Assembly (NCBI RefSeq): GCF_000019605.1
Contig: NC_010482.1
Coordinates: forward strand, 450,001-482,000
Direction of reading: 5' to 3'
DNA: 32,000 nucleotides
DNA from: Candidatus Korarchaeum cryptofilum OPF8
GTDB lineage: Archaea > Korarchaeota > Korarchaeia > Korarchaeales > Korarchaeaceae
A program made the translations under genes and the position numbers. A model generated the notes under the pieces. The model had not been told where the DNA came from, did no database searches, and saw only the letters and a list, made by a program, of their open reading frames with translations. Below are positions 1-20,917 of the stretch, piece by piece (the first letter of the stretch is position 1; each line of letters opens with the position of its first letter).

Positions 1-1681
1 CCTTGTCTCGATGAAAAGAGGATTGAAAGTTTCCCCGTGAAACCGCAGAAAAATGCCGCTACACAGACGTCTCGATGAAAAGAGGATTGAAAGCGTGATA
101 GAGTTCATATTCACACCTCGATCTGAGGAGTGGTCTCGATGAAAAGAGGATTGAAAGAGGATGAGGATATCGAAATCCTCAAGGCCATAAAGAGGCGTCT
201 CGATGAAAAGAGGATTGAAAGTTTCTTCTATCTCATCGTAATGTGACTCTATGAAAACTGGTCTCGATGAAAAGAGGATTGAAAGTTGGTAATGTTGGTA
301 ACTTGGTAGGGCTCATGATCCAGTCTCGATGAAAAGAGGATTGAAAGGGCAGATATACTGCCACCACGTCGTCGCTAGCGGCCCCCGTCTCGATGAAAAG
401 AGGATTGAAAGTCAGTATGTTGTAGAGCTCATCATAGCTGAAGTTAACTGCGTCTCGATGAAAAGAGGATTGAAAGTTGACGCGTTTGAATATGAAACTC
501 ATCATCACAGTCTGTCTCGATGAAAAGAGGATTGAAAGCTAAGCATGTCATAGGCTATTTGTTCGAGCTCACCACGCGTCTCGATGAAAAGAGGATTGAA
601 AGCTAAGGATTGGCAAACTTGGTAAAGTTGGTAACTTGGTAGTCTCGATGAAAAGAGGATTGAAAGATATGTTAACTTGAGGAACGTCGCGGATCCGAAA
701 ATAGGTCTCGATGAAAAGAGGATTGAAAGTTCTGTCGAGTATCGTAGCCTTCTTTACAATGTCCTGTCTCGATGAAAAGAGGATTGAAAGTTGCTCTCCT
801 CGATCGTCTTCTTCATATCTCTGATCTTCGGTCTCGATGAAAAGAGGATTGAAAGAGCTCTATGTTCCTTATCCTCCTCAGGTCCTTCTCAGTGTCTCGA
901 TGAAAAGAGGATTGAAAGGTGGTGGAACGGGGACTTCAGAGTGAATATAATGCAAGTCTCGATGAAAAGAGGATTGAAAGCTAACACTTAATTTCTTCTC
1001 TGGCGGTTTTTCTTCCTCTGTCTCGATGAAAAGAGGATTGAAAGCCTCGTGGGCGTCCTCCAAGACGCCCCCGAGGTCAACCGGTCTCGATGAAAAGAGG
1101 ATTGAAAGAGCTCTATGTTCCTTATCCTCCTCAGGTCCTTCTCAGTGTCTCGATGAAAAGAGGATTGAAAGGTGGTGGAACGGGGACTTCAGAGTGAATA
1201 TAATGCAAGTCTCGATGAAAAGAGGATTGAAAGCTAACACTTAATTTCTTCTCTGGCGGTTTTTCTTCCTCTGTCTCGATGAAAAGAGGATTGAAAGCCT
1301 CGTGGGCGTCCTCCAAGACGCCCCCGAGGTCAACCGGTCTCGATGAAAAGAGGATTGAAAGTAAGAGGATCGGGAGCGATCAAATAACCGACCAAATTCA
1401 GTCTCGATGAAAAGAGGATTGAAAGCTCCGATCGTAGTGATGTTGGTAGTCGCTACGCATTACGGTCTCGATGAAAAGAGGATTGAAAGCCCTGATCAAT
1501 TATTCGGGTCTCCTCCTCCATATCATGTCTCGATGAAAAGAGGATTGAAAGAGTGGGGTCCAGTGGGGAGGAGCTGACCAAGTGGGGTCCGTCTCGATGA
1601 AAAGAGGATTGAAAGGCAGGACAGAGTGACGAGCGTTTTCGACCCAGAGATCCTCCGTCTCGATGAAAAGAGGACTGAGAG
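1..1681 (+). CRISPR. CRISPR array truncated by the left window edge. It has 27 copies of the 25-nt repeat GTCTCGATGAAAAGAGGATTGAAAG and 26 complete spacers of 36-41 nt, of which 22 are unique.
   Basis: Repeat starts were read directly at 5, 69, 133, 197, 261, 323, 387, 452, 514, 578, 642, 705, 766, 831, 894, 956, 1020, 1084, 1147, 1209, 1273, 1337, 1401, 1465, 1527, 1591 and 1657. The last repeat (1657-1681) is degenerate (GTCTCGATGAAAAGAGGACTGAGAG, 2 mismatches). The repeat 3' end ATTGAAAG matches the canonical 8-nt crRNA 5' handle, which argues for plus-strand transcription with the leader left of the window. Confidence 0.98.
856..1361 (+). repeat. Perfect tandem duplication of a 253-bp block (4 spacer+repeat units) inside the CRISPR array.
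   Basis: Spacers at 856-893, 919-955, 981-1019 and 1045-1083 recur identically at 1109-1146, 1172-1208, 1234-1272 and 1298-1336. The artefactual ORFs 878..1063 and 1131..1316 have identical translations offset by 253 nt. Confidence 0.95.
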
Positions 1682-1701: not shown

Positions 1702-2283
1702 TCATGAATGGAGAATGTGCATTACACGTTCCAAGGATTGACTGGCTTTCAATCGCTCCGCAAGTATGTCTCCTTCCCGTGCATATCCCCTGGTCACTTC
1801 GAATGAGAGTTTAGAGAGCTTATTGGCCACATCATCGAGTGACTCTACTCCGAGCGTCAGTTCGATTGGTAGACTCATGTCCCACATCCTAGCCTTCATG
1901 CTCAAGAGCACCTCCTTTACTATTGTAGAACGTGAAATAGCTTTTTCATCGCTTATGTAAATGCAGTAGATGTCATTGAGAAGATCTCCAGGTTCTTCAT
2001 ATAGTGCGATTACCTCCTTGCCAAGGAACCTGGCGGTCCTCAAGGACAGTACGGCCGCAGCGAGTTCCTCAGCATATCTCTTTATCAACCTCCTCATTAA
2101 CTCTTTATACTCTTTATAGGAAGCTTTAAAGCGTTCCTCCGCGCACTCCACATCGTAAATCCATTCATCGATGCACTCAGCCAGTAAGAGGGCTACTATC
2201 TTGCCATTAGAGATCTCTTCAAATTTCTCGTCCTTAACTAGTTTATCATGAGAGACCTCAGAGAGGAACTCGAGAATTATCAT
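1702..2283 (-). CDS. Hypothetical protein (193 aa) with no recognisable motif, sitting between the array end and the cmr-linked accessory genes.
   Basis: It is a long ORF with an ATG start preceded by AAGGTGA (SD-like). A TATA-like AATTATAAAAG lies about 60 nt upstream on the minus strand. The stop is 20 nt from the terminal degenerate CRISPR repeat. Confidence 0.6.
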   Translation of the reverse strand: MIILEFLSEVSHDKLVKDEKFEEISNGKIVALLLAECIDEWIYDVECAEERFKASYKEYKELMRRLIKRYAEELAAAVLSLRTARFLGKEVIALYEEPGDLLNDIYCIYISDEKAISRSTIVKEVLLSMKARMWDMSLPIELTLGVESLDDVANKLSKLSFEVTRGYAREGDILAERLKASQSLERVMHILHS

Positions 2284-2358
2284 AATTTCACCTTACTGCT
2301 CGCACTATACAGTAATCGAACTTAATTTTCTTTATCTCTTTTATAATTTCACTCTTCT

Positions 2359-2813
2359 TCACTCCGCAGCTCCCCCCAGTATGATAACGGCTGCAGTCTT
2401 GGGAATTGCCCCGCTAAAGCAGAAACACTCGTTAGAATGCAGATATCCATCTTTCTTCTCTTTGAATTTATTCACTATGGCTTCAACTTTCTCCCTCCTT
2501 ATACGTTTACACTCCACATGAACGCAGATATCCTTTTCCCCTTAACTTCTATCAATAGGAAGTAATCGAATTTCTTCCCTTTCTTCACCCAATCAGATGG
2601 GCAATATTTGTGTTTAAAATTCCCGTTAGCGAGTTGATCGATTCTACGTGCGAGAAGCCTTTCCACTTTAAGCCCGCCCCTAACTTTAGCCTCCTCCTCC
2701 CTCATATGATCTACTATCTCCATTAACGGCCCGCACTCCGGATCTTCCATATTCTCCTCAATTATCTCAAGTATCTCTTTAGAACATTCAGTCTCATCTG
2801 AGCGCTTCTTCAT
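2359..2813 (-). pseudogene. Possible full-length (~151 aa) Hjc-like PD-(D/E)xK nuclease gene interrupted by a -1 frame change at a G4A4 run.
   Basis: In the -1 frame, the sequence from the run AAGGGGAAAAGG (plus-strand 2532-2543) reads GEKDICVHVECKRIRREKVEAIVNKFKEKKDGYLHSNECFCFSGAIPKTAAVIILGGAAE up to a TGA at 2359-2361. The span is 455 nt, one short of a multiple of 3. Confidence 0.45.
2499..2813 (-). CDS. Small protein (104 aa as an uninterrupted ORF) with a PD-(D/E)xK-like motif set, probably the N-terminal part of a frameshifted nuclease.
   Basis: The motifs are KVERLLARRIDQL (acidic helix), CPSDW and FLLIEVKGK (ExK). The ORF overlaps the upstream ATPase gene by 20 nt, and it stops only 14 codons after ExK. 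Confidence 0.6.
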   Translation of the reverse strand: MKKRSDETECSKEILEIIEENMEDPECGPLMEIVDHMREEEAKVRGGLKVERLLARRIDQLANGNFKHKYCPSDWVKKGKKFDYFLLIEVKGKRISAFMWSVNV

Positions 2814-3921
2814 AAGCTTCTCTCTCCCTCCTGAAGAGCTCCGGACTCGTTATGTTCTCCTCGGTCAGTCTCTCCGCTCTCCCATCGTGGACGTAGTAAG
2901 CCGGAAACCCGCGCTTTATAGCTCTAGAGAGGAGGAGCCCCGTGTGCAATTCAGCTACGAATCTGATATTCTCTTTCTCCTCCATTAAGTCCAAGAGGTT
3001 TAGGAGCCAATCCACGTGGACTCCCGCATCGAAAACTTCTGTGAGTAGAACTCCTTTCAATTCGATCCCGAACTTCTCAGCATATCTCAAGAAGTTCTCG
3101 ATCCTGTAGGCGGAGATCAATATATTGAGTACTTGAAGGAAACCATCGCTCATGGAAGTTAGAGGGAGACAGGAGTTATCTTGGCATACATATATCCTTT
3201 TCCCGGGGATTATATCTTCTACTGAAACGGAATCTGCCGTCACACTATTCAGATCCTCGATGAATTCACCCACTCTAGCTCTCCCGAGCGAGTAGAGATA
3301 ATTCACGCCATCCTCAATGTTCTTCAGAATATCGTCATATGAGGGTCTGCGTAGATATAGATATGGTTTCTCAAAGCGACTCCTGAGCCTCTCAAAATCT
3401 CTAGAAAGCTCCGGAAGATCCCCTAGATCGATCCCTGCAATTCTGAGCGAGGAGATGTAGTCACTCTCTAGTAGGTAGGTCCCTTTGGGGGGAGGGAGTT
3501 TGTTCACTCGAAAAACGAGCCCCCCGGAGAGGACTTGGCTCCCTCTCTCCATATCGTATCTGTGGACAAATTTATATCTCTCGCTCTTCAGTTCAAGTCT
3601 ACTGGGCAATATAGACTCCTTCTCGACTAAAGGAGAAATTGGGAGGAGGTAGGAGTAATCTACTTCTAAGGAAACCTTATCTGAGAAAGGTTCATCTAAT
3701 TGTGCCTCCAAGCTGAGTTTCGGGTTATCTATTCTAGCGTAATCCGAGAGATCAGGATAATCATTAATGGGCCCGAGAATAGTGCATAGCAGGAGATCTA
3801 TCGCTCTCAATATACTCGATTTTCCCTCGCTATTCGGCCCGTATAGTAGCGTCACATTCCCTATTTCGATATCGGCCTCGATTATCCTGATGAGGTTCCT
3901 CACTCTTATCTCACTTATCAT
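2794..3921 (-). CDS. ABC/SMC-like (AAA_15/AAA_21-type) ATPase of 375 aa; not a core Cmr subunit.
   Basis: It has Walker A LLYGPNSEGKSSIL at the N-terminus, a signature-like LTSMSDGF, a Walker-B-like GVLLTEVFDAGVH and a distal ELHTG. It starts 8 nt after the cmr6 stop. Confidence 0.75.
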   Translation of the reverse strand: MISEIRVRNLIRIIEADIEIGNVTLLYGPNSEGKSSILRAIDLLLCTILGPINDYPDLSDYARIDNPKLSLEAQLDEPFSDKVSLEVDYSYLLPISPLVEKESILPSRLELKSERYKFVHRYDMERGSQVLSGGLVFRVNKLPPPKGTYLLESDYISSLRIAGIDLGDLPELSRDFERLRSRFEKPYLYLRRPSYDDILKNIEDGVNYLYSLGRARVGEFIEDLNSVTADSVSVEDIIPGKRIYVCQDNSCLPLTSMSDGFLQVLNILISAYRIENFLRYAEKFGIELKGVLLTEVFDAGVHVDWLLNLLDLMEEKENIRFVAELHTGLLLSRAIKRGFPAYYVHDGRAERLTEENITSPELFRREREAYEEALR

Positions 3922-3929
3922 GATACCAC

Positions 3930-4682
3930 CTACAGCTCCATGAGCCCGTAACCTACTAGGGTCTTCGCTCCGATCCCTCTCCTGAGGACCTCCATCATGA
4001 ATTGTCCTAAGAAGTCACCTAATCTCCTACCCTTCCCCCTCAACCCAATAATCATCCTGAATGTCACGTCCTTATTTATAACGGGATATATCACTGGCTT
4101 CGGCTCAGCTTTCACTTCCCTAACTCCCTTAGCTCCGTATATGGGGGTGGTGACCTCGGGCACTAATAAATTGCTCTTGGAGCTGACTGGGTAGGAATCG
4201 AGGAAGATTATTGAAGAAGATTCCGATTTAGATCCGAGCAATGGGACAAGATCCGGCCTCTCTGACTCCAGATAGGATCTGAAGGCCCCTTTCAATGAAG
4301 ATCCTGGTATATAGGGGAGATTTAGGAGAGGATCCCAGGATAGGCCCACTTCGAATATCTGCTTCCCGAAGATCTCGCTCGCCATCCCAACTATCAATCT
4401 AGACCTCGTCACGGCTAGGAAATCGAATACGTCATAACCACAAGATTTGAGAGCAGATTTCTGCATATCTAAGAGATTTGAGGCTTTTTTGAAGACCTCA
4501 TTCAAATTATCGGGTGAATATGCTGTGAATAGGTCCTCTAGAATTCTCCTCCTCTCCTCGGATTCCCCACCCCTCTCCGCCTTATCCCTCAGGTATTTCA
4601 GGCCCCTGATCCTCATCCAGGAGAGGGTATTCATCGAGGAGGGATTCAGGGGGATCTTCCCGATCTCCTCGATCAGTCTCAT
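3930..4682 (-). CDS. cmr6: Type III-B RAMP subunit Cmr6.
   Basis: It carries YIPGSSLKGAFRS and the C-terminal glycine-rich GIGAKTLVGYG typical of Cmr6. It overlaps cmr1 by 4 nt. Confidence 0.85.
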   Translation of the reverse strand: MRLIEEIGKIPLNPSSMNTLSWMRIRGLKYLRDKAERGGESEERRRILEDLFTAYSPDNLNEVFKKASNLLDMQKSALKSCGYDVFDFLAVTRSRLIVGMASEIFGKQIFEVGLSWDPLLNLPYIPGSSLKGAFRSYLESERPDLVPLLGSKSESSSIIFLDSYPVSSKSNLLVPEVTTPIYGAKGVREVKAEPKPVIYPVINKDVTFRMIIGLRGKGRRLGDFLGQFMMEVLRRGIGAKTLVGYGLMEL

Positions 4683-5878
4683 AAGTAGATCACCTCGCTC
4701 TCATATCCGATCCTATCGAGATACTCCAGAAGGCTCGAGACCGACGTGATGTAAGCTTTCTTCACCTCTAAGCGATCTATCTTCAGATTCTTCCTTCTCC
4801 TCCCTATCCAAACAATCTCGGTCGGCCAGTCACCCGAGAGGAAGAATGTGAAGAGGGCTCCCTCCTTATGGACCGCTAGATGGACGGCGCTCGCCCTCCT
4901 CCCATCGTAAATATATCCAGTCATCTTCTGCATTCTCGGGAGGCCGAGGAACCATGCCAACCTCTCCCTAGTTATGTCGTCCCTGCTCTCATCAGCGCTG
5001 CTTATCCTGTATTTCATTCTCCTCAACCTAGCGGGCCTGTAGAAGAAATCTTGAAGCTCTATAACCATATTATCTATACTCTTATCTTCCCTCGGCTTGG
5101 CTCTCACTATCATGAAGACCGGAGTTTCCCTCAAGTTGATGAGCCTCACACCAGGTACAATCCCGGAGAGGTCGATTTTAGCTTCCGATATGCAGTCTAT
5201 CGGAGGTATCTCACTCGGTTTTCCCCTATCGAGATCCAAGTAAGACCTCACGGATTCCATAGTCTCCCTTATCAACTCCCTGAGCTTGCTGTGATCCAGC
5301 TTCCCGTTCACCAAGAAATCCCCATTGAAGCCCTCTACTTCCACAGAGAAAGTCCCGAGGCCCCTCCTCCCTCCCTTCCCCAGCCCGTTGAGGGAGAGAG
5401 CCGTGAGAAGGGATCCTATTACTACTTTTATCTCATTTTCATCGATCCTTTTCACGTGTGGAGACTTCTCAATTATTATCTCAGCGTATGCCTTATCTCC
5501 ATAACTAATCTTCCCTCTCTTCCCCATGGAGAGGAGCCTTATCCTCTGTGCAGCGAATTCATCCTCCTTACGATCAGCTTTAGCTCTGTTGATAACTATC
5601 CTGAATTTCGAAGCTGATCCCTGGCTTCCCAGAAGATCCCCTGTCTTCTCCACTATTTTCTTGAGAGATTCGGGATCGATCCCGCAGACGAGATCCCCCT
5701 CCTCCTTGCACTCCAGGAGGCCCGCGTCGTACATAGCTCCGGCTATGTAAGCTCTCAGCCAATACCTCCAGAGCCCCTTGAGGGATTGAGTCCTGAAAGG
5801 ATCTTCCTCGTGGAACTGGGTATCGTAACCACCCAGATAAAGCCTGCTCTCCCCATTGAGCTTGAGCAATATACTCAT
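4679..5878 (-). CDS. cmr1: Type III-B RAMP subunit Cmr1.
   Basis: RTQSLKGLWRYWLRAY matches the Cmr1 R-x-PS-[IL]-KG-x-x-R-W-W-x-RA motif. It also has LGLPR and RRASAVHLAV in the C-terminal half, and it sits within the operon. Confidence 0.85.
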   Translation of the reverse strand: MSILLKLNGESRLYLGGYDTQFHEEDPFRTQSLKGLWRYWLRAYIAGAMYDAGLLECKEEGDLVCGIDPESLKKIVEKTGDLLGSQGSASKFRIVINRAKADRKEDEFAAQRIRLLSMGKRGKISYGDKAYAEIIIEKSPHVKRIDENEIKVVIGSLLTALSLNGLGKGGRRGLGTFSVEVEGFNGDFLVNGKLDHSKLRELIRETMESVRSYLDLDRGKPSEIPPIDCISEAKIDLSGIVPGVRLINLRETPVFMIVRAKPREDKSIDNMVIELQDFFYRPARLRRMKYRISSADESRDDITRERLAWFLGLPRMQKMTGYIYDGRRASAVHLAVHKEGALFTFFLSGDWPTEIVWIGRRRKNLKIDRLEVKKAYITSVSSLLEYLDRIGYESEVIYL

Positions 5879-6810
5879 CTCCCATCACCCCCGACAGGGA
5901 TGACGGAGCCGAAGCCCAGCTCCCTCCCCACGCCTATCCCCTTCTCATATACCTCGCGTCCCTCCACACCTCTCTCCAAGAATATCACACTTCCCGGGAG
6001 GAGGGCTTGATAAATGGGCTTCCTCCTCTTCCTGATTTCACTGTATCCCGTTCCTAAGAGATCTATCTTACCGTAAACTTCAGCTTCCCCTATCTCCTCC
6101 CTCAAGATCTCAATGAAATCCCTCCCCGTCTCATAAAGGATGGGGGATAGCACGTAGAGTAGGTGTGCTCTCTCCGGTATATCGCAGATGTAATTATCGG
6201 CTTCAGATATCTCGAGCAAGGATACCCTTCCCTCCCCTCCCAGCCTCACCACGTACCTCCCCGTCTCGATCTCCCCCGATACTAAATCGAACTCTATCGT
6301 AGTGTCTAGCTCCATGTCGGAGAGGTAATCTATGAAAGTAGCTGTGTAAATGAGCCCCCTATCCTCATCAGCTACCTTCAACATCTCCCTCCTAGTTTTG
6401 AGCCCTATTCCCGTGACCGTTAGCTCCTTCGGGGAGAATCCCCTGCTTAAAATTTCCCTCAACTTCTCCTCCGACCCCTTGCTGAGATCCCTCTTGAGGC
6501 GACAGTACTCCTCGACATCCTCGAGCCTAATGAACTTCCCATCCACTCTATCCTCCACGTATATCACGGATCCCTTCCTCAGGTAGGGCCCCCTCATCCT
6601 GACTCCCAGGACCCTCGAGTAGGCCTCATCCCAGCTCATGGATCCCGTATCAATATGCTCGCGTACAGTCGCCAGGGCTCCGGCTGTAGTCGATGGACTC
6701 GGGGCTAGGAGCGAGCTAGCCCATGAGTAAACGCCCCTAGCGCTCGGATCGAACTCCCCAGGACCCCTGAAGAGGTAAGGCTCTAAAGACCTGAAAGCAG
6801 CTCTGTACAT
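5875..6810 (-). CDS. cmr3: Type III-B subunit Cmr3.
   Basis: The N-terminus LEPYLFRGPGEFD...ASSLLAPSPSTTAGALATV matches the Cmr3 pattern (LLFR..RPF....A.S..P.P.T.AGA.R). The gene abuts cas10. Confidence 0.85.
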   Translation of the reverse strand: MYRAAFRSLEPYLFRGPGEFDPSARGVYSWASSLLAPSPSTTAGALATVREHIDTGSMSWDEAYSRVLGVRMRGPYLRKGSVIYVEDRVDGKFIRLEDVEEYCRLKRDLSKGSEEKLREILSRGFSPKELTVTGIGLKTRREMLKVADEDRGLIYTATFIDYLSDMELDTTIEFDLVSGEIETGRYVVRLGGEGRVSLLEISEADNYICDIPERAHLLYVLSPILYETGRDFIEILREEIGEAEVYGKIDLLGTGYSEIRKRRKPIYQALLPGSVIFLERGVEGREVYEKGIGVGRELGFGSVIPVGGDGR

Positions 6811-9612
6811 TCAATCACCCCTCAAACCGCTGTAGAGGAGCCTGCACGACTTGAATAGATTCAGGAAGAAGGGTTCCTCTCCATCGCGATCACGCCTCCT
6901 GACTCCCTCATATCTCTTTATATACTCCATTATCTCCCTCAGGATATCTTCCCTCCTCTCTCCTCTCTGTATGTGTCTCCCTATCATGTACTCGATGACC
7001 TTATCGAAGATCTCCATCTTCCCCATGCTCCAAGCCCTCTCAGCGGTCTCCATGAAGTTACCTCGGGAAGCTTCATAGAGTAAGCTAACTGAGATATCCC
7101 CGGACCTGATCTTCCCGATGAGATCGTCCAGGAATCGGAGGTCCACCGGAGATAGCCCGGGATCCCTCAGGGAGAGAGGGAGTATAGAGCTCTCCGAGGA
7201 TCCTCTAGCTGAATAAGTTATGATCAGAGAATCCTTCTTCCTCTCCCTCCCATCTACCCAAACGGAGCCCTTAGCTACCTCTAGCTTAAGTGAGGAATCG
7301 CTCACCACGGCGTAAAGCGGATACCTGTAATGCGTGATGTAGAGGGAGTAACTCCTCCCAGCGTCTCCCATAGATGGTATCAAGTAATTGCCTAGCTTGT
7401 GGAACCGACCGGATCCATCGAGACCACTGTAGCCACGCCTGCTCCCATCGATTATCCTGATCGCTGAACTCACGGGAGCTATTGAGAGTAGATCGTCACC
7501 TCCCGCGTATATGACGATGCCATTGTTGTCCTCGATTTGCTTTATATCCCTGAGAGCAGATATTATGAGGGCCCTAGAGATCGAGACGTGATAAGATAGA
7601 CTCACTGGAATCTTCCTGCTCGATATAATTTCATTTAAGAATTCCTTGGTCTTACGTAAGTTCTCCTCATTGAGATTCTCCTCCTTCGCTATATCTTTCA
7701 ACTTCTCATAATCAGAATCCATGATCCTCAGTACTACCTCCCTGGATTTCCCCTCGAATGAGCTCACTATGTAATCCTTCACATCGATCCCGATTACTCC
7801 TACTTCTCCACTTAGGATACTCCCCATGTCATCCCCATCTGCCCTTATTAACGCGTAATACATCCCTATAGGAGGTATAACGATGCCTTTTTCCTCCAAA
7901 TACCTTCTCAATTCAGACCAGAGCTTCCTCTTCTCCTTCCCAAGTATAGCTACTTCGGACTCCGCCAATAGAAAGCCTAGGAGCCCCCTCTTCAGATCCG
8001 GATCTATACTAGATTCCCCTATCTCCTCGAACTTCCTCAATTGGTATTTCCAGGCGAGGACTCTCTCCTCATACTGGGACTCTAGAACTCTTCCCATCAA
8101 CTCCCTGATCTTCCCATCCTTCCAAAGCTTATCTAAAGACGGAAGATCTCTTAAGAAGCCATCCTTGAACTCAAAAGTAGCTATATCGGCGAGGGATGGG
8201 TAAGATATCTTCACATCTCCCCCGTACCCTAGGATCCTGCGGAGCACAGGACCTGGCCTGCGGGAGAAGATCCTCTTCATCAAGCAATACGGGCAGAGCC
8301 TCTCTCCCTCCTCCAAGAACTCATCGGAGGCCCTTCCATCCCACCGTACTATAGCAGGGAGCTTCCCGCACATCGTACAGTAATCGAAGCCCCTCTTACT
8401 ATCAGCTAGGGAGCCCTTACCATCGAATATCTCCCTCGTGATCTCTGTTAGAGGGAGCATGCAAGCAGGATTCACCTTTAGGAGCTTTTTCTTCCTATTC
8501 TCATTCATCAGGGATTCGAATGCTTTCGCATAGACATTATCTCCGCCCTTCGAAGTATCCACGCGAACTGAGGATATTCTCATTGAGAAAGGAGGCACTT
8601 CCATGAACCCATAACGCATTTCCCTCTCTAGATCCCTGGACAGGGGTACATCGAGCTCCATTATACCCTCACAGAACTCCTTCCATTTCCTCCTGAAGCT
8701 CTCCTCAACGAGCACCTCGGCATCCGAGATGAATGAAGGCAGGACTAAAGTCATAGATCCGGGGATTACTGCGAACCTAGGAAAGGAAAATCTCTCGCAT
8801 AAGATCTCCTCAAATCCTTCTATCTTGATGATTTTCAAGTAATCTCCTATCGCTTGAACTCTGTTAGTGAGATCACAGTAGAAGAATGGGTTGAACCTGC
8901 ATGATGGTGTCAGCACGACATCAGGCCCATATCTGATGAGATTTAGCACCGTGCTCCAGAGGAGGGCTGAAATGATGTAACTTGATGCCCATAGATCCCT
9001 CAATCTCCTCGATTGTGCTATGAAGTCCTGGACGCCAGCTATATCTATGTGGAGGAGAAGGCCCCCTCCCTCATATGTCCAGTTCAGAGCGGTAGCTGTC
9101 GCGTAGAGGTGATCGAAAACCGTGTGAGTAGGTATCCTGGTATCTGCTGGGCCTGATGGGAGGCCCTTAGCAATCCATATGAGCTCATATAGGCCGAAGA
9201 GAGCGAGGTAAGCTTCTTCTACATTTTCAGTCTTCTTGAGCACACCATTTAATTCTCTCATGACTTCCTCTACTTTATCCTTCCCTAAATCGACTTGTAT
9301 TGAGTGCTCTATCCTCGGGTTTATCGGATTCTTCAATTTTATGGACTTCTCCGGGAAGGCGCCTCTCTTATCCCCTATGAGCTCCCCGAGCAGGACCCTA
9401 TCGACCGAGGCAGCGAGTCTATCCGCCTCCCTTACCCTTTCATCGGATAGCATCTCCCCCGCTTCACTCAGGGGAGTCCCGTCTAAAGCTATATGAGCGA
9501 GCTCCTCAGCCCATTTCTCATGCTTCTCTCCCCTCACCAAGCACCATGCTTTGTCAGGAGGGTCATGGAATAATGCCGCTGTCTTCAGGAGGATTAGCTC
9601 GCGTAAGTCCAT
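6811..9612 (-). CDS. cas10: Cas10 / Cmr2 large subunit (933 aa) with an HD motif, a Zn-finger and a GGDD cyclase palm.
   Basis: The N-terminal ALFHDPPDKAW is the Cmr2 HD signature. CTMCGK...CPYCLMKR is a treble-clef Cys4, IRADGDDMG is palm 1, and VIYAGGDDLLSIAP is the GGDD motif. Confidence 0.95.
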   Translation of the reverse strand: MDLRELILLKTAALFHDPPDKAWCLVRGEKHEKWAEELAHIALDGTPLSEAGEMLSDERVREADRLAASVDRVLLGELIGDKRGAFPEKSIKLKNPINPRIEHSIQVDLGKDKVEEVMRELNGVLKKTENVEEAYLALFGLYELIWIAKGLPSGPADTRIPTHTVFDHLYATATALNWTYEGGGLLLHIDIAGVQDFIAQSRRLRDLWASSYIISALLWSTVLNLIRYGPDVVLTPSCRFNPFFYCDLTNRVQAIGDYLKIIKIEGFEEILCERFSFPRFAVIPGSMTLVLPSFISDAEVLVEESFRRKWKEFCEGIMELDVPLSRDLEREMRYGFMEVPPFSMRISSVRVDTSKGGDNVYAKAFESLMNENRKKKLLKVNPACMLPLTEITREIFDGKGSLADSKRGFDYCTMCGKLPAIVRWDGRASDEFLEEGERLCPYCLMKRIFSRRPGPVLRRILGYGGDVKISYPSLADIATFEFKDGFLRDLPSLDKLWKDGKIRELMGRVLESQYEERVLAWKYQLRKFEEIGESSIDPDLKRGLLGFLLAESEVAILGKEKRKLWSELRRYLEEKGIVIPPIGMYYALIRADGDDMGSILSGEVGVIGIDVKDYIVSSFEGKSREVVLRIMDSDYEKLKDIAKEENLNEENLRKTKEFLNEIISSRKIPVSLSYHVSISRALIISALRDIKQIEDNNGIVIYAGGDDLLSIAPVSSAIRIIDGSRRGYSGLDGSGRFHKLGNYLIPSMGDAGRSYSLYITHYRYPLYAVVSDSSLKLEVAKGSVWVDGRERKKDSLIITYSARGSSESSILPLSLRDPGLSPVDLRFLDDLIGKIRSGDISVSLLYEASRGNFMETAERAWSMGKMEIFDKVIEYMIGRHIQRGERREDILREIMEYIKRYEGVRRRDRDGEEPFFLNLFKSCRLLYSGLRGD

Positions 9613-9614
9613 AA

Positions 9615-10091
9615 TTAACCCTCCGATGGTAGCGTAGCTTCAGCCAGTCTCTTTATCTCGAGGAGATATGGTATTAGGAGTGGAACTAGGGGCCTATCCA
9701 ATCCTTCAAGTGCCTTAATACATGAGAGGGGGTCTCTGAGATCCAAGTTCTTATCCGGTACGAGCCTGCTGATCTCGAGGAGGAGGAGGTGGAGGTAGGC
9801 AGCATAACCCCCTTCCTTTGAGTTAAGTCTTTTCAGATCTTTAGTATCTCCTTTCAAGCAATTTAAGAGAATAGCGTAAGTCCTCTCGGTAGCGTCATCT
9901 GTCTTAGCGTATATGAAACTCAGGCCGGATATCAACCCGACCTCGTAGAGGAAAGAAGGGGTCTCTCTGGCTCTGGATCTGAAGGACTTACCGAAATCTA
10001 CTATGTTCCCATCCAGGTAAAGCTTATATATCAGCTCAAAATCCCTCAAAGCTCTACCCTGAGGGCTGATCGCCTCCTTCTCTCCCATCAC
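9615..10091 (-). CDS. cmr5: Type III-B small subunit Cmr5 (Cas11 family).
   Basis: It is a 158-aa protein with helical-looking composition. It sits between cmr4 and cas10, with a 4-nt overlap to cmr4 and a 2-nt gap to cas10. Confidence 0.7.
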   Translation of the reverse strand: MMGEKEAISPQGRALRDFELIYKLYLDGNIVDFGKSFRSRARETPSFLYEVGLISGLSFIYAKTDDATERTYAILLNCLKGDTKDLKRLNSKEGGYAAYLHLLLLEISRLVPDKNLDLRDPLSCIKALEGLDRPLVPLLIPYLLEIKRLAEATLPSEG

Positions 10092-11005
10092 TCCACCTCC
10101 CTGAGCATCACGATCCCCCTTCCGACGCTCTCATCCCCTCCTATTATCAAGTACTTGACCTCCTTCAGTAAAGCATCTATGGGATCCTTCAGATCCTCTC
10201 GCTCCCCCTCCACTGCTTTCTTCAGGACGTCCCTCATATACTCGTAGCTATATCCGAGGAATACTGTTGAGAATAGGGCCCCAGTCGGGATGGCCTCCTC
10301 AGTCCATAGGCCTCCTCCAGCCACCGTCTTCGTCTCCCTATTCACTCTTATCCTCGTGATCCTTAGGAGGGATCTTTCGATGAGTTCCTTAGCCCTATCG
10401 TCATCTAAAGATATCAAGCTCTCACTATCGTCGAGGCCCATTAGTTTCCTGAGATAATCCATATCATCTCTCTCCTCTATAAGTTCCCTATCGATGCCTA
10501 TCTCCTCGCAGAGGAAGGCCTTTCCAAGCCCATCTACTACATGCTTTTCAATGAAGCCTTTAGTAGCTGGGAATTTCCCTGATATACTGGCTATGCTCTT
10601 TACTCTCTTCGAGATCTCAACGTACTTCTCATTAAGCACGGAGGCCATCTCTAAGTAACTGGAGAACCTCCTCAAGAGGAAGGGGGATGTGATATTCGTG
10701 TAGATACCTTTCAGACTCCTAACGGGGAATGAGAGGAGGTAAGATGTCGTTATCGCTATTGGAGATAGATATTTCTCCTCCTCATCAGGCTCTGGTCCCA
10801 GAAGAGCCATCAAGTTCTTATCCCTGTGATACAGGGCCGTCTTTATGGATCCCTTTATGCTAGATCCGTATATCACTGGAAAACCGACACTATCTCTCTG
10901 GACAGCTAGATCGACAATCTCCCCTCCTCTCCCAGTTCCAGGGTGAATGTCGCTCAGGCATTTTATGATGACAACTTTTGCAAATTTGTAGGGTTCAAAG
11001 GACAA
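10088..11005 (-). CDS. cmr4: Type III-B backbone RAMP Cmr4 (target-RNA cleaving subunit).
   Basis: IHPGTGRGGEIVDLAVQRDSVGFPVIYGSSIKGSIK parallels the Cmr4 N-terminus, including the catalytic Asp in VD..(I/V)QR. The start is TTG, preceded by GGGAGGT. Confidence 0.85.
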   Translation of the reverse strand: MSFEPYKFAKVVIIKCLSDIHPGTGRGGEIVDLAVQRDSVGFPVIYGSSIKGSIKTALYHRDKNLMALLGPEPDEEEKYLSPIAITTSYLLSFPVRSLKGIYTNITSPFLLRRFSSYLEMASVLNEKYVEISKRVKSIASISGKFPATKGFIEKHVVDGLGKAFLCEEIGIDRELIEERDDMDYLRKLMGLDDSESLISLDDDRAKELIERSLLRITRIRVNRETKTVAGGGLWTEEAIPTGALFSTVFLGYSYEYMRDVLKKAVEGEREDLKDPIDALLKEVKYLIIGGDESVGRGIVMLREVE

Positions 11006-11283: not shown

Positions 11284-12021
11284 TCACATTATCTCGCTCA
11301 GGAACTCGAGAATCTTCCTCCCGTACTCCGTGGGTATCGTCCTTCCCCCGCTCACTTGTACGAGGCCGAGCTGCTCCATTAAAACTGCCATGTTGAACCT
11401 CACCTCATCTCTCTTAGCCCCCCTCAGTACTTTCACAGCTTCCTCCAGGACCTCAGCGGGATATGGGATAGATGGAAGCCTTATGACACTGTATTCCGTT
11501 CTGGGGGGCCACATGAGTTCTTCGAACTCCTCTACAGATCTGTAGAAGGATAAGGGATCGCTAGCTTCATACAGCTCCTTTATCTTCTCCCTCAGGCTCT
11601 CCAGTAGCACATTAGCCACTCTCACGTCCCTGGCTACTACATGATACACGCCGCTCAATGGGAAGAAGAGGCTCATCATCGCCAGCTCCAAGCTCATGAC
11701 CTTCCTACCTCCGGATATGAGGAGGTATAAGCGGTATTTTCTCAGATCCGGGATCAATTTAGCTACTCTCATGAGGAAATCGAAGGCCCTCTCCTCATTA
11801 TCCACATCCTGGTACGGGAAGACCTCAGTATCCACCCTTATCCTGGGATATTTAGATTTCACAGCTACTTCAACGAGCTTGGATCCAGCCAGAACGTCTC
11901 TCTCTTCAGTGGAGAGCAGTACTATCCTCCTAACATCCTCCCCTTCCGATATTAAGTACTGGAGGAACTCGGTCACGACAGGAGGGGAGAGGCCCATAGT
12001 CGCAACTATAGCTGCTTGCAT
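11284..12021 (-). CDS. CARF-domain protein with a C-terminal winged-helix-like region (Csa3 / Csx14(NE0113)-like putative cOA-sensing regulator).
   Basis: The N-terminal VATMGLSPPVVTEFLQYL and LLISGGRKVMS are CARF hallmarks. The C-terminus AVLMEQLGLVQVSGGRTIPTEYGRKILEFL looks wHTH-like. The gene is divergent from csx1. Confidence 0.65.
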   Translation of the reverse strand: MQAAIVATMGLSPPVVTEFLQYLISEGEDVRRIVLLSTEERDVLAGSKLVEVAVKSKYPRIRVDTEVFPYQDVDNEERAFDFLMRVAKLIPDLRKYRLYLLISGGRKVMSLELAMMSLFFPLSGVYHVVARDVRVANVLLESLREKIKELYEASDPLSFYRSVEEFEELMWPPRTEYSVIRLPSIPYPAEVLEEAVKVLRGAKRDEVRFNMAVLMEQLGLVQVSGGRTIPTEYGRKILEFLSEIM

Positions 12022-12187
12022 CTGAATTACGATCTAGCGGGACATATAACCTTTTGGGGGATCTATCTTGCTACCGCTCTAACCGAGGGGAATGTTTCTC
12101 ATCTTAGCGGAGCTACGGGAATCTGTTAATAGAATTTTTCAATCACACCACTACGCTTTTATTATTAACATGCCCAAATGCTGCGAT
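12022..12187. promoter_or_regulatory. Divergent promoter region for the two CARF genes.
   Basis: CTTTTATTATTAA (12155-12168) is centred about 27 nt before the ATG at 12188. On the minus strand, TTATATG (12043-12049) is centred about 25 nt before the ATG at 12021. Both spacings fit leaderless archaeal transcripts. Confidence 0.45.
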
Positions 12188-13588
12188 ATGAGTGAGCGGA
12201 TTTGCATCGCTACATGGGGGAACCCCCAGGAGTGGAAGTTCGCCGAGTATTACTCAGAGGATCAACCTCAGAGGAGAGTACGCGCCTTCTCCACCCTCAA
12301 TATCCTCCATGAGATCGAGCAACCTTCGAAGACGATTATAATAGCCCTCGACACATTGGCAGACCCGGATAAGCTGGAGGAGTGCGGATCCGATTATAGC
12401 TGCATCGAGGCGAATGTCAGGGAGAAGATTGGAAAATACTTGTGCGGGATTGAGGCAGAGATTGTAGTGCTTCCTGGAGTCTTCTCGAAGAGGGAATCTG
12501 GAAGACAAATAATCTTCAGATCAGATCCCCAAAAGGAATTTTTACCTCTCCTAATTTATGAGCTTTACGACAGGCTGCTGAATGTGGACGGCGAATTGGA
12601 GGTGGTGCTCGATATAAGCCACGGTATAAATTTCATGCCGACTCTCGCCTATAGAGCGGTTACCGAGGTAGCAGCAGCTTTAGCGGTTGCGAGAGCAGAA
12701 CAGGTGAAACTGAGGGTTTATCAAGCTGATCCATACCCATCGTTACCTCGTGAGATCGGAAATAGACTTGCTAGAAGCGATGATCTGTGCAAGCCTGCAT
12801 CTGAGGATGAACCGCCGAGTTTACGTTACAATAAGATCGCTGAGGCTACTTTCAAGCTCTGGGATCTATCCCGTTATGTGGCTCATTATAGTGAGAGGAG
12901 GCTACTGACAGCTCCAAAGGATTATGACTTTGGCAACTCAGACGAGCTTTTGGAGAAAGCCTTACTACTTCTTGGTGCTTATAGGCTGGGTGCCCTCCTA
13001 CAATTGGGTCTACTAGCTAAAACTACTCACATAGAGGATTTAGAGCGGGTTATGAGGAAAGCAGTAGAGTTCTGGAGAAGGAAGAGGAGAGTAGTCAGAG
13101 AGATCAATGGTTTAAAGTTGGAGAGTGATAAGAAGTTCCTGACCGGCTTTTACTTACTATTACATGGGCATGCCGTGCTCAGAGGAGCAAAGAAGCTACT
13201 GTCTGAGAGCGAATCCGCCAGCCTAGATGAAGCTATCGTTACTTTTAAGGAGATCAACGAACTAAAGAAACTCCTAGAAGGCTCCAAGGTTGTGACAATA
13301 CTCGTGGATAGGGAGATTTCCAAACTTGATAATAAGGTTCGAAAATCAGGTAATATAATTAACGATTGGACATTGTATACGGATATACTGGAGAAGCCAG
13401 AGGAGAAATCAGATGGAGAGCCCCAGCGGGAGAGGGAAGATATGGAGATATTTAAGAGGAACTTCATAGCTCATGCAGGATTCCACGATGAAGTTGTCGA
13501 ACTTAGGATGAGGAATGATATAGAGCTTAGGGTGCGCCCAGGTGAGTGGGATAGAGTGAAGGGAGCTCTTAAGGAAGCGGTGGCATAA
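12188..13588 (+). CDS. csx1: Csx1 family CARF-HEPN ribonuclease.
   Basis: It has MSERICIATWGNPQEW (CARF N-terminus), LDISHGINFMPT and the HEPN R-x4-H motif KRNFIAHAGF near the C-terminus. The ORF is open from 12092, but the TATA position favours the ATG at 12188; an alternative ATG lies at 12170. Confidence 0.85.
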   Translation: MSERICIATWGNPQEWKFAEYYSEDQPQRRVRAFSTLNILHEIEQPSKTIIIALDTLADPDKLEECGSDYSCIEANVREKIGKYLCGIEAEIVVLPGVFSKRESGRQIIFRSDPQKEFLPLLIYELYDRLLNVDGELEVVLDISHGINFMPTLAYRAVTEVAAALAVARAEQVKLRVYQADPYPSLPREIGNRLARSDDLCKPASEDEPPSLRYNKIAEATFKLWDLSRYVAHYSERRLLTAPKDYDFGNSDELLEKALLLLGAYRLGALLQLGLLAKTTHIEDLERVMRKAVEFWRRKRRVVREINGLKLESDKKFLTGFYLLLHGHAVLRGAKKLLSESESASLDEAIVTFKEINELKKLLEGSKVVTILVDREISKLDNKVRKSGNIINDWTLYTDILEKPEEKSDGEPQREREDMEIFKRNFIAHAGFHDEVVELRMRNDIELRVRPGEWDRVKGALKEAVA

Positions 13589-13830: not shown

Positions 13831-15069
13831 TTAATACTCCGATGGAGATTCGATTAGCCATTTCCACAGGGGAATAAGCTTTATCTCAACCCCATCGACG
13901 TTCCTCACTCCCTCCTCCCCCCTAGTTATTATGACCCCCTCCTTCACTCCCATCTCCTCGGAGCAGGATACCAGCTCCTTGATCTCCCTCTTCTCCGCCC
14001 TGAGTATACCGTAGGAGACCTGTATCATCCTCTCAACTCCGCTCTCATCGAGCAGCAGGAAGTCCACCTCCAGGCCCTCCCTGTTCCTCCAGTACCCTAT
14101 GCTCAGATCTGGCCTCCTCCTCTTTAGCTCTAGGAGAACGGCGTTCTCGAAGAGCCTGCCCATGTCAACGCTCCCCGATGCTGCATACATGAAGCCGGTA
14201 TCTCCGAGATAAGCTTTCCTGGGGTACTTGAGCCCGTCCTTGATGGATCTCGAGAATATGGGGATGAAGAAGAATAGGTAGCTCTCCTGAGATACCCTCT
14301 CCAGCTTGAGTACTGTATCCTTCCCGACCCTGAATCCGAGGTCTTTCAGGAAGTCGTGGCACTTCGAGGCCGTGAAGCGGGGATTCTCAACTACGTACTT
14401 CGAGAACATCTGTGTAAGAGCAGCATCCTCCCCTGCAGCCCCGGCGACTTCGGAGACTATCCTGTCGAAGTAGGAGCTCAGTATCCTCACTTTATCCATA
14501 CTCTCCTCGGATAGAACGACCTCGGGAAGGCCCCCGTAGAGGAGGTACTCCTCGAGAGCCCTCTCGAGCCTCCCTGTACCGCTATTATAATCGGCTTCCA
14601 GGCCCTTGAACTTCAGGAACTCCCTGAATGAGAGGGGATACATCTCACGGACGAGCATCCTCCCCCTGAGGCGCTCGTATGGAGCCATGCTCCTCGATGA
14701 GGTCACTACCATGAAGAGCTTCCCCCTCAGGAGCTCATGCGTTCTGAGGAGCCAGCTTTCCCAGCCATGAGCTTCGGTTATCTCATCCAGGAGGAGGTAC
14801 CCCGAGTACCCGAACCACTTTACCACATCATCCAGAGCCGTCTTAGATCCCCTCATCCTTATGTCCTCTAGGTTTACGTAAGCGGCCCTCTCACCCATCT
14901 TCAACAGCCTCTGCAGGAGCATCATGAGGAGGCTCGACTTCCCGGAACCCCTCATTCCAGTTATCGCGGTTATCTTATCCTCGCTTATCATCTTTAAGAG
15001 ATCTATTTCCCTCTCCCTGAACTCCCTCCTCGCGGCGTAGAGGTTCCACTCCTCGAGCGATGTTCTCAC
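13831..15069 (-). CDS. AAA+ ATPase, COG1373 type with a DUF4143-like C-terminal domain (paralog A).
   Basis: It has Walker A GMRGSGKSSLL and Walker B LLLDEI. The C-terminal EVDFLL...IQVSY...LIPLWKWL is shared with 17490..18749 and 19208..20521. The start is GTG. Confidence 0.8.
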   Translation of the reverse strand: MRTSLEEWNLYAARREFREREIDLLKMISEDKITAITGMRGSGKSSLLMMLLQRLLKMGERAAYVNLEDIRMRGSKTALDDVVKWFGYSGYLLLDEITEAHGWESWLLRTHELLRGKLFMVVTSSRSMAPYERLRGRMLVREMYPLSFREFLKFKGLEADYNSGTGRLERALEEYLLYGGLPEVVLSEESMDKVRILSSYFDRIVSEVAGAAGEDAALTQMFSKYVVENPRFTASKCHDFLKDLGFRVGKDTVLKLERVSQESYLFFFIPIFSRSIKDGLKYPRKAYLGDTGFMYAASGSVDMGRLFENAVLLELKRRRPDLSIGYWRNREGLEVDFLLLDESGVERMIQVSYGILRAEKREIKELVSCSEEMGVKEGVIITRGEEGVRNVDGVEIKLIPLWKWLIESPSEY

Positions 15070-17489: not shown

Positions 17490-18749
17490 ATGGAGGGAAC
17501 GCTCAGATCCCTTATCTCGGAGTGGTTCTCCAGCGAGATACCTAAGCTTGTGAGGAGAGATATCTCCCTCCCAATTAGAGGGAATGCATTGGCCTTAATT
17601 GGCCCTAGAAGAGCTGGGAAAACTTTCATGATGTATCAAATAGCTTCAGATCTAATGCAGAGGGGAATCGCCAGGGAATCCATCGTTTACCTGAACTTTG
17701 AGGACCTTAGGCTCTCCAATCTGAGGGAAGAGGACTTTCCAACGTTCCTGAAGATATTGGCGGAGATGACCAAACCCCTGCCCTCGGGTGAGAAAGCGCT
17801 TCTACTATTAGATGAGGTTCAGAACCTGAAGGAGTGGGGGAGATGGGTCAGGTCCCTCCTGGATAGGGGGTATGCTGTCGTCTCCGGATCCTCCTCGAAG
17901 GTGGGGGTGAGGGAGATACCGACGGAGCTCAGGGGCAGGTACTTGGAGAGGCTGGTCTTACCCCTCTCCTTCAGGGAATTCCTGAAGTTCAGAGAGGTAA
18001 ATATAGACTATTTAGAGGCTCCCGAGAAGAGAGGTAGAATATTGAGATATTTGAGGGAGTATTTGATGCTTGGAGGCTTCCCTGAAGTTGTCCTAAATCC
18101 GGAGCATGCAAAGGAGCTTTTAAGGGTTTACAGGGAGACCGTCTTTTACAGGGACATCATCGAGAGATTCAGGGTGAGGGACATATCCTCATTCAGATTC
18201 TTCTTGGAGATGCTCGAGGGCAGCTTCGGTAGCTATTTCTCCCTATCCTCAGCTCAGAAGACGTTCAAAAGTATGGGGATTAAGAAGAGTAAGAAGACGC
18301 TTGCAAACTACTTTAAGTACTGCGAGGACTCCTTCTACATCTTACCCATAAGGAAGTTCTCATTCAGCAGAAAAGCGATGCTACAGCAGCCTAGGAAGGT
18401 CTACCCCATCGATACGGGCTATATGAAAGGAGAATCCATCGGGAGGAGGATGGAGAGCTCGGTAGCTATTGAGCTCATGAGGAGGGGGGATGAGGCTTAC
18501 TATATGAAGGAAGGCGATAGTGAAGTGGACTTCCTCCTGGTGAGGGACAGGACCGTTGAAGAGGCAATACAGGTCAGCTATTCCCTTGATGAAGTTGAAA
18601 AGAGGGAAATAGAGGGATTGAGAAAGGCTTTCGATCTTTTCGGCGGGATTAAAGCCTCAATCCTGACATGGGATCTGGAGGGAGAGAGATCCTTGGATGG
18701 GAGGACTATCAGACTGATCCCTCTCTGGAAGTGGCTCCTCTCCCACTAG
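17490..18749 (+). CDS. AAA+ ATPase, COG1373 type with a DUF4143-like C-terminal domain (paralog B).
   Basis: It has Walker A GPRRAGKTFMM and Walker B LLLDEVQ, plus the C-terminal EVDFLL...IQVSY...LIPLWKWL. Confidence 0.85.
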   Translation: MEGTLRSLISEWFSSEIPKLVRRDISLPIRGNALALIGPRRAGKTFMMYQIASDLMQRGIARESIVYLNFEDLRLSNLREEDFPTFLKILAEMTKPLPSGEKALLLLDEVQNLKEWGRWVRSLLDRGYAVVSGSSSKVGVREIPTELRGRYLERLVLPLSFREFLKFREVNIDYLEAPEKRGRILRYLREYLMLGGFPEVVLNPEHAKELLRVYRETVFYRDIIERFRVRDISSFRFFLEMLEGSFGSYFSLSSAQKTFKSMGIKKSKKTLANYFKYCEDSFYILPIRKFSFSRKAMLQQPRKVYPIDTGYMKGESIGRRMESSVAIELMRRGDEAYYMKEGDSEVDFLLVRDRTVEEAIQVSYSLDEVEKREIEGLRKAFDLFGGIKASILTWDLEGERSLDGRTIRLIPLWKWLLSH

Positions 18750-19105: not shown

Positions 19106-19151
19106 TGTACGGGCAGCTGGATGATGATATTATCCTCAATCGATCCTCTTA

Positions 19152-19195: not shown

Positions 19196-19207
19196 GTATG
19201 GTTACCT

Positions 19208-20892: not shown

Positions 20893-20917
20893 GCTTTTTT
20901 CCTGAGAGAACTTCCAC

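Follow-up and report, generated by a model that had tools for sequence, protein, structure and literature searches.

The window analyzed here is a 32,000 nucleotide (nt) stretch of Candidatus Korarchaeum cryptofilum OPF8 (NC_010482.1, positions 450,001–482,000); all positions given below are those of the window. Its minus strand carries the type III-B effector operon cmr4-cmr5-cas10-cmr3-cmr1-cmr6, and joined to the 3′ end of this operon are a gene for a 375 amino acid (aa) ABC-type ATPase and two smaller genes, termed gene 2 and gene 3. With a probability of about 0.6, the three genes represent a conserved accessory module (ATPase, PD-(D/E)xK-like protein and gene 3) of the catalogued Cas_RecF + RFas kind, which would act as an ATPase-controlled nuclease and which is present here as a broken copy.

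Three accessory genes at the 3′ end of the cmr operon

The Cmr and accessory proteins of the window were scanned against Pfam, NCBIfam and PADLOC. The genes of the operon are the following:

3930–11005, minus strand: type III-B effector operon cmr4-cmr5-cas10-cmr3-cmr1-cmr6, directly upstream of the ATPase gene
10088–11005, minus strand: cmr4 (Pfam, NCBIfam, PADLOC)
9615–10091, minus strand: cmr5 (Pfam, NCBIfam, PADLOC)
6811–9612, minus strand: cas10 (Pfam, NCBIfam, PADLOC)
5875–6810, minus strand: cmr3 (Pfam, NCBIfam, PADLOC)
4679–5878, minus strand: cmr1 (NCBIfam TIGR01894)
3930–4682, minus strand: cmr6 (NCBIfam TIGR01898, E-value = 7e-27)
2794–3921, minus strand: gene of the 375 aa ABC-type ATPase, intact (AAA_15/AAA_21; OLD/PtuA/RecF-like head)
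2288–2813, minus strand: gene 2, broken over three frames (Cys-rich, PD-(D/E)xK-like; 165–178 aa when intact)
1702–2283, minus strand: gene 3, 193 aa, intact, last gene of the operon (conserved; no family or fold match)

From position 11005 down to position 1702 the minus strand is a single tightly packed string of genes. cmr4 and cmr5 overlap by 4 nt, cmr5 and cas10 are separated by 2 nt, cas10 and cmr3 abut, and overlaps of 4 nt are present at cmr3/cmr1 and at cmr1/cmr6. The gap between cmr6 and the ATPase gene is 8 nt (3922–3929), and the ATPase gene overlaps the following 104 aa open reading frame (ORF) by 20 nt (2794–2813). The packing, all of the junction distances and the Cmr assignments are as described in the first-pass annotation of this DNA. 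Shine-Dalgarno (SD)-like motifs, i.e. GGTGG, GGAGGGAG and AGGTGA, are found upstream of the three accessory starts, with AGGTGA located 5 nt before the gene 3 ATG. There is no AT-rich box within 80 nt upstream of the ATPase start, and a TATA-like sequence, CTTAAATTTT, is found about 45 nt ahead of the cmr4 start. Because of the 8 nt gap, the SD-like motifs and the missing AT-rich box, the simplest reading of the sequence is that the accessory genes are co-transcribed with the cmr operon. A scan for sigma-70 promoters and intrinsic terminators, which is inapplicable to an archaeon, gave chance values (16 vs. 12.1 ± 3.7 and 8 vs. 8.1 ± 3.0, respectively), and a scan for the exact promoter box TTTAWATA was likewise at chance level.

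The 375 aa ATPase displays scores over the Pfam gathering thresholds for AAA_21 (36.9 bits, cutoff 27) and AAA_15 (34.0 bits, cutoff 32.1) and also matches AAA_23 and SMC_N. Its best NCBIfam matches are RecF (TIGR00611, E-value = 1.2e-4) and an SMC-related protein, and its best PADLOC matches are AriA (E-value = 1.5e-10), PtuA, AbiLi, GajA and Old. No model specific to this ATPase or to the proteins encoded with it exists in Pfam, NCBIfam or PADLOC; for NCBIfam and PADLOC this includes the crenarchaeal members. A search of the PDB with the profile of the clade finds the OLD-family protein 6p74 (E-value = 1e-7) and, over the full length, PtuA (8ee4, E-value = 1e-4); Rad50 is also among the matches.

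The ATPase motifs that had been pointed out from the sequence are real. Walker A, GPNSEGKSS, is in register with PtuA (8ee4), the signature-like LTSMSDGF is aligned with PtuA LSQLSDGL, and the H-loop ELHTG is aligned with PtuA TTHS; all three are invariant across the ATPase clade. The sequence GVLLTEVFDAGVH is aligned with PtuA GIVLIDEVDMFLH, and the D and H of FDAGVH are also in register. At Walker B, the window has LLTEVFD where PtuA has VLIDEVD, i.e. the acidic residue is kept (D to E) but the catalytic E is replaced by V. The PtuA LID-E corresponds to LVE-V in the clade profile and to LTE-V in the window protein. The position of the catalytic glutamate is occupied by V, G, N, I or T in all inspected members of the family, and the canonical form, hhhhD-E or hhhhE-E, is found neither in the clade nor in the wider family. 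On these alignments the catalytic glutamate is missing throughout the ATPase family. E-to-Q mutants of ABC ATPases trap ATP-bound dimers. Since the glutamate is replaced, the protein is predicted to bind ATP and to hydrolyze it slowly or not at all.

At the position of the 104 aa ORF of the window, intact homologues have one gene of 165–178 aa. The first-pass annotation regarded the ORF as a separate small gene that forms a pair with the ATPase gene. The ORF is instead a fragment, about the first third of gene 2, and the module has three genes, as the 193 aa ORF at 1702–2283 is conserved with it. The invariant residues of gene 2 are E26-C27-G28, E41, C56-R57, C71, F82-D83, C97, H99 and E101-C102-K103, together with C130-F-C132-F and an F-D-Y close to the C terminus; eight cysteines are invariant among the homologues. 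The conserved motif is D…H-V-E-C-K (D83, H99, E101, K103). An ExK motif previously noted in the small ORF, IEVK, is not conserved and is rejected as the catalytic motif, its E being R, K or T in the homologues; HVECK is encoded in the second frame of the broken gene.

An AlphaFold2 (AF2) model of gene 2 has a predicted local distance difference test score (pLDDT) of 81 and a predicted template modeling score (pTM) of 0.81. It displays a helix at positions 30–45, strands at 50–57, 84–90 and 96–105, a helix at 110–122 and a strand at 137–147. PD-(D/E)xK nucleases have this αβββαβ order; in the model, D83 opens β2, and E101 and K103 lie in β3. The top Foldseek matches are MUS81, HamA (Hachiman), BsaWI, EndoMS/NucS, MspI and FokI; no match is significant, the E-values being at least 0.015. 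Seven gene 2 members show no Pfam match to Cas_Cas4 or PDDEXK_1 at E-values up to 10. There is no HNH match in gene 2, and no Toprim match in the ATPase, gene 2 or gene 3 (Pfam, NCBIfam and PADLOC in both cases). From the conserved residues and the model, gene 2 is predicted to encode a cysteine-rich PD-(D/E)xK nuclease-like protein.

Gene 3 is conserved in the close clade and its model has a pLDDT of 81. Fold searches gave nothing significant (best E-value 1.1 in the PDB and 0.68 among viral structures), and there is no sequence match in the PDB profile search or in Pfam, NCBIfam or PADLOC. The insignificant matches include a few RRM- or palm-like folds, too few for an assignment as sRRM. A paralogous relationship of gene 2 and gene 3 is ruled out by hhalign (E-value = 0.18).

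Comparison of the window translation with the homologues shows that gene 2 runs over three frames, 2502–2813, 2362–2541 and 2291–2362. The first is the 104 aa ORF (2499–2813). The second carries HVECK and a 52 aa ORF (2359–2517), and the third (2288–2362) ends in the C-terminal sequence …KIKFDYCIVRAVR followed by the stop codon. A relative that is 98% identical, L015, has an intact 178 aa gene and serves as the reference for the lesions:

2532–2534, minus strand: frameshift 1 of gene 2, a 1-nt deletion at about 2533 (window GGGGAAAAGGAT vs. L015 GGAGAAAAGGGAT)
2374–2376, minus strand: frameshift 2 of gene 2, a 1-nt deletion at about 2375 (window CTGGGGGGAG vs. L015 CTGGAGGGGAG)

There is a further in-frame deletion of 9 nt at about 2340 relative to L015, and the invariant Cys56 is an Arg in the window. 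Frameshift 1 is at the boundary of a G run and an A run, and frameshift 2 is the loss of an A inside CTGGAGGGG. Divergence of the window from L015 per 100 nt is 0.35 in the ATPase gene, 2.85 in gene 2 and 1.55 in gene 3, and the codon differences in gene 2 are 13 nonsynonymous to 1 synonymous. The frameshifts could be homopolymer sequencing errors; however, because of the frameshift sites, the C56R change and the 13:1 ratio, real decay is favored over this explanation. Gene 2 in the window is probably a pseudogene, or at least a hypervariable locus, and the module copy in this genome is probably non-functional or decaying.

Breaks are also seen in related sequences. P0018 is another gene 2 allele, broken at a different site. 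In two related assemblies, L016 (8325–9451) and L017 (7337–8463), the ATPase is split into 138 aa and 237 aa by a change of G6 to G5 (GGGGGG to GGGGG) at the position corresponding to about 3520–3530 of the window, where the run is intact. Four independent contigs (L001, L002, L016 and L017) that are 98.5%–99.3% identical all stop at the equivalent of window position 2720, approximately, inside gene 2. The shared end suggests an assembly break that results from strain-level variation in gene 2.

Homologues of the ATPase and their gene neighborhoods

At word-search sensitivity the ATPase has ten relatives among 5.8 billion proteins, with 37%–99% identity. The closest named relative is that of Ca. 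Methanodesulfokora washburnensis (Korarchaeia), at 52% identity. A scan of genome contigs with the single ATPase protein gave no match, and an alignment-based search of the contigs found only Ca. Methanodesulfokora washburnensis and bacterial sequences that match at Walker A alone. In the close clade, cmr6 is followed by the ATPase gene in every contig that reaches upstream (all but L012), and wherever a contig reaches downstream the ATPase gene is followed by genes of 165–178 aa and 177–196 aa.

Synteny between the window and L015 stops exactly at the gene 3 stop codon (window 1700/L015 2223 onward). Beyond gene 3 the window has a CRISPR array, and L015 has cas1-csa1-cas2-cas4-csa3 and a type I-A-like cassette. 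From this comparison the locus is rearranged at the boundary of gene 3 and the CRISPR array.

An exhaustive HMMER search with the close-clade ATPase profile, run against 1.84 billion representatives, found 392 proteins at E ≤ 1e-3, of which 53 reach E ≤ 1e-10 and 7 reach E ≤ 1e-30. The wider family comprises a group of about 400 aa and a larger group of about 270–330 aa. Its named members are from a Thermoprotei archaeon, Saccharolobus caldissimus (P0047) and Thermoproteus sp. (P0052). Both groups are clearly homologous to the window clade. For the crenarchaeal group of about 300 aa, hhalign gives 99.9% (E-value = 1e-35), and the similarity includes 116 C-terminal columns besides the Walker A head.

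Gene order could be read for distant homologues with profile E-values of 1e-47 to 1e-15. The P0026 ATPase gene is directly 3′ of a RAMP gene. The locus of P0030 (L030) has the order cmr4-cmr5-cmr1-cmr6-ATPase-161 aa-206 aa-501 aa, followed by more RAMP genes and cas10 genes, and that of P0036 (L031) has the order cas10-cmr3-ATPase-180 aa-204 aa-cmr4-cmr5-cmr1-cmr6. The trio is located between cmr3 and cmr4 in L031, L042, L046 and L057. In S. caldissimus (P0047, L033) the order ATPase-202 aa-196 aa is found between two type III gene sets and csx1. The 501 aa protein that follows the trio in L030 (12291–13796) is a fourth, conserved-looking protein that has no Pfam match.

Most loci of the wider family have two tightly coupled small ORFs after the ATPase gene. 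One subgroup of the partners has PD…ExK, and another consists of proteins of 136–140 aa and 170 aa that do not have the motif. The D…ExK of the first small ORF in distant loci is in register with that of gene 2 and is seen in FDIFIRI…CYCVECK, PDLLII…CYIIELK and DWFILY…LIIECK, and the first small protein of L030 is homologous to gene 2 (hhalign 94%, E-value = 9e-8). The invariance of the D…ExK triad in the close clade, together with its reappearance in distant partners, argues for catalysis by gene 2.

A type III cassette lies beside or around the ATPase gene in 10 of the 10 close and mid-distance homologue lineages examined. The association was further analyzed in 50 metagenome loci, the ORFs of which were searched by phmmer and with hidden Markov models (HMMs) for Cas10, Cmr3, Cmr5 and RAMP proteins, built from proteins of the window, L030, L031 and L033. 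Loci matching the C-terminal signature were taken as family loci, and loci with a match to the Walker A region only as controls. Type III genes are present in the fetched DNA of 18/31 family loci and 0/18 controls (Fisher p = 3e-5); when loci of at least 5 kilobases (kb) are considered, the figures are 8/13 and 0/11 (p = 0.002). Homologues of the ATPase are therefore not found mainly away from type III loci, and the coupling to the Cmr operon that had been proposed for the window is borne out by the 8 nt gap, the SD-like motifs and the type III contexts of all ten lineages. Because there are long family loci without type III genes, the wider family is linked to type III systems strongly, not exclusively.

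Some family loci with no adjacent type III genes (L038, L049, L054 and L037) adjoin ResIII/Helicase_C or DEAD_2 helicases, a D12 methyltransferase-glycosyltransferase fusion, or a DUF2201 metallopeptidase-VWA gene. These neighborhoods may be other defense contexts for the same ATPase family.

Relation to known systems and possible function

Catalogues of archaeal type III accessory genes describe an SMC/RecF-type ATPase, Cas_RecF, that is located by type III cassettes and always accompanied by RFas proteins of about 160–180 aa with no database matches (PMC3973734, Table 5). Cas_RecF proteins are nearer to each other than to other RecF-domain proteins, which the authors read as co-evolution with the partner CRISPR-Cas system (PMC3973734). 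In a later catalogue Cas_RecF is cluster 17, which comprises 31 SMC ATPases with a length of about 330 aa; clusters 83, 84, 108 and 211 (cas_RFas), of about 160–180 aa and with no profile matches, invariably adjoin it and rank among the most cas-specific families (PMC6546367). The pair is often accompanied by csx1 of the MJ1666 type (PMC6546367). No published function of Cas_RecF + RFas was found in the literature searched.

The window trio fits as a divergent member of Cas_RecF + RFas. In both cases a RecF/SMC-type ABC ATPase is found within or next to an archaeal type III cassette and is followed by small proteins (about 160–200 aa) with no database matches, often with csx1 nearby. The window ATPase is homologous to those of Saccharolobus and Thermoproteus, the gene context having been read in Saccharolobus only, where it agrees with the catalogue description. 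It differs from Cas_RecF in its length (375 aa vs. about 270–330 aa) and its middle region; moreover, the window lineage is Korarchaeia-like, the position is strictly after cmr6, and the catalogues did not recognize the partner as a Cys-rich PD-(D/E)xK-like protein. Since the architecture matches that of the catalogued module, the system is not an undescribed one as the first-pass annotation suggested. No characterized family came out of the profile searches; they point only to a catalogued, uncharacterized one. The module has been catalogued since 2014 and is functionally uncharacterized. New here are the recognition that the partner is Cys-rich and PD-(D/E)xK-like, the family-wide lack of the catalytic glutamate, the presence of three genes, the extension of the family beyond Crenarchaeota, and the strain-level decay or hypervariability of the nuclease.

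A second, parallel pair is Cas ABC ATPase + sRRM, encoded near crenarchaeal type III and certain type I systems and invariably with a small partner of about 150 aa (PMC3973734, Table 5). The 136–140 aa and 170 aa partner subgroup of the wider family may correspond to it. The window partner differs in that it has D…ExK and a nuclease-like topology and no evident RRM.

The proposed ATPase and nuclease combination is supported, in that the ATPase is OLD/PtuA/AriA-like and gene 2 is PD-(D/E)xK-like. Septu (PtuA-PtuB, including the retron-associated PtuAB) is similar in having an ATPase that aligns with the window protein over the full length and an adjoining nuclease gene. However, the window partner is PD-(D/E)xK-like rather than HNH, there is a third gene, the catalytic glutamate is missing, the protein scores 12.7 bits with the NCBIfam PtuA model, for which the cutoff is 500, and the module is inside a cmr operon. 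PARIS (AriA-AriB), Gabija (GajA) and the OLD nucleases have the AAA_15/AAA_21 ABC head in common with the window protein, whereas the window module has no Toprim domain or partner, its ATPase is only 375 aa long, and the matches are mostly to the N-terminal head. Cas4/RecB-type nucleases are also small, PD-(D/E)xK-like, encoded at CRISPR loci and provided with several conserved cysteines; gene 2 differs in having no Cas_Cas4/PDDEXK_1 match, in having eight rather than four conserved cysteines in another arrangement, and in being paired with an ATPase in an effector operon, not with cas1/cas2.

In the favored reading as an ATPase-controlled nuclease module, the ATPase would bind ATP and dimerize or oligomerize like other ABC heads of the OLD/PtuA/AriA type. 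Because the catalytic glutamate is missing, it may act as a slow or non-hydrolyzing nucleotide switch and scaffold that holds, loads or licenses the nuclease partner encoded by gene 2, and gene 3 could be an adaptor. The outcome would be a DNA-directed effector arm for Cmr that is independent of CARF and cyclic oligoadenylate (cOA) sensing.

Several points weigh against this reading. The lack of the catalytic glutamate is read from alignments, not from activity. Gene 2 has no sequence-profile match in Pfam, the PDB, NCBIfam or PADLOC, and its Foldseek TM scores of 0.25–0.35 give weak fold support. Homology of gene 3 to the third genes of L030, L031 and L033 is not detected, and no sensor domain (CARF/SAVED) or Cmr-docking feature is identified in the trio. 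Of the 13 family loci that span 5 kb or more, five lack type III genes in their vicinity. The assignment to Cas_RecF + RFas, of which the named members are VMUT_1481 and P186_0874 (Cas_RecF) and VMUT_1493, TTX_1229 and Pcal_0278 (RFas), is indirect, through the catalogue description and the homology to the Saccharolobus and Thermoproteus ATPases.

A more specific form of the proposal is tentative and rather improbable. The trio could be a cOA-independent Cmr arm in which a PD-(D/E)xK nuclease with a metal cluster is released or loaded by a hydrolysis-dead ABC ATPase, itself a scaffold or a switch set by ATP occupancy, either when Cmr engages its target or when Cas10 activity alters the local nucleotide pool. 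If so, the repeated breakage of the nuclease gene and the fast protein divergence in near-identical strains would reflect toxicity or an arms race with viral inhibitors.

The alternative that survives best, although it is rather improbable, is that the three proteins are structural or assembly subunits of Cmr, i.e. an ATP-dependent chaperone or recycling factor that assembles or remodels the CRISPR ribonucleoprotein (crRNP) or releases target RNA, with gene 2 degenerate and non-catalytic. The location of the trio inside the core operon, between cmr3 and cmr4 in four loci, speaks for such subunits; the family-wide lack of the catalytic glutamate and of a detectable sensor domain points the same way, as does the speculation of Shah et al. 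that the energy for cleaving the target comes from ATPases of this kind (PMC6546367, section 3.1). However, all close-clade members share the triad of gene 2 and distant partners show it again, the majority of type III-B systems function in the absence of the trio, and the cmr genes are intact in strains with a broken gene 2 or ATPase.

Still less probable is an autonomous defense system of the Septu, PARIS or Gabija kind that shares an island, and sometimes a transcript, with type III genes and does not depend on Cmr for its function. In favor of it are the best PADLOC matches (AriA, PtuA, AbiLi, GajA, Old), the nearness of the five long family loci lacking type III genes to other defense-like genes, and the Cas-association score of cluster 17, which is only moderate at 24.7 (PMC6546367, Table 2). 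Functional independence is hard to reconcile with the 8 nt gap to cmr6, the insertion of the trio between core cmr genes in other lineages, the type III context of all ten close and mid-distance homologues examined singly, and the mutual closeness of Cas_RecF proteins that was read as co-evolution with CRISPR-Cas partners (PMC3973734).

A RecF-like helper in DNA repair or adaptation, i.e. one that processes DNA ends when spacers are acquired or repairs the self-damage left by type III interference, is very improbable: N-terminal matches to RecF, Rad50 and SMC, and the L015 trio being followed directly by cas1-csa1-cas2-cas4, favor it, but the RecF/Rad50 similarity is limited to the Walker A head, there is no coiled coil or Mre11 partner, and in nearly all loci the linked genes are those of the effector rather than cas1/cas2.

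The effectors for which type III CRISPR systems are known are CARF/SAVED proteins that respond to cyclic oligoadenylates. To our knowledge, the non-CARF accessory genes, about half of the type III catalogue, are almost entirely unstudied. The present module is among the most tightly cas-linked of these, and some lineages have it inside the core cmr operon. For the anonymous RFas proteins the favored reading provides a hypothesis, that of a Cys-rich PD-(D/E)xK nuclease under an ABC ATPase unable to hydrolyze ATP canonically. If true, type III complexes would have a second, signal-independent route to DNA, and type III immunity would be linked mechanistically to the ATPase-nuclease defenses Septu, PARIS and Gabija.

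Flanking features of the window

The operon is flanked by a CRISPR array and by two accessory genes of the cOA pathway:

5–1681, plus strand: CRISPR array with 27 repeats GTCTCGATGAAAAGAGGATTGAAAG (repeat end ATTGAAAG)
11284–12021, minus strand: Csx14/Cas_NE0113-type CARF gene, cOA-pathway accessory
12092–13588, plus strand: csx1 (CARF-HEPN), cOA-pathway accessory, divergent, upstream of the operon

Because the repeat ends in ATTGAAAG, the array is read on the plus strand, toward the operon. Between the end of its last repeat, which is degenerate, and the gene 3 stop codon there are 20 nt. Within the array, positions 856–1336 contain an exact tandem copy of four spacers and their repeats (spacers 856–1083 = 1109–1336). 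The spacers at 286–322 and 603–641 have a common TTGGTAA…GTTGGTAACTTGGTA-like core, which hints at a repetitive protospacer as their target.

Three paralogous genes for AAA_14 + DUF4143 ATPases are located beside the CRISPR-Cas locus, at 13831–15069 (minus strand), 17490–18749 (plus strand) and 19046–20521 (plus strand); a related AAA_14 gene flanks the CRISPR-Cas locus in L001 also. A PIN-domain gene at 20918–21358 (minus strand) has a small upstream partner at 20575–20928, which suggests a toxin-antitoxin pair. A Cas6 gene is found at 24914–25819 (minus strand), about 14 kb from the cmr operon, and an M48 peptidase gene at 29578–30504 (minus strand).

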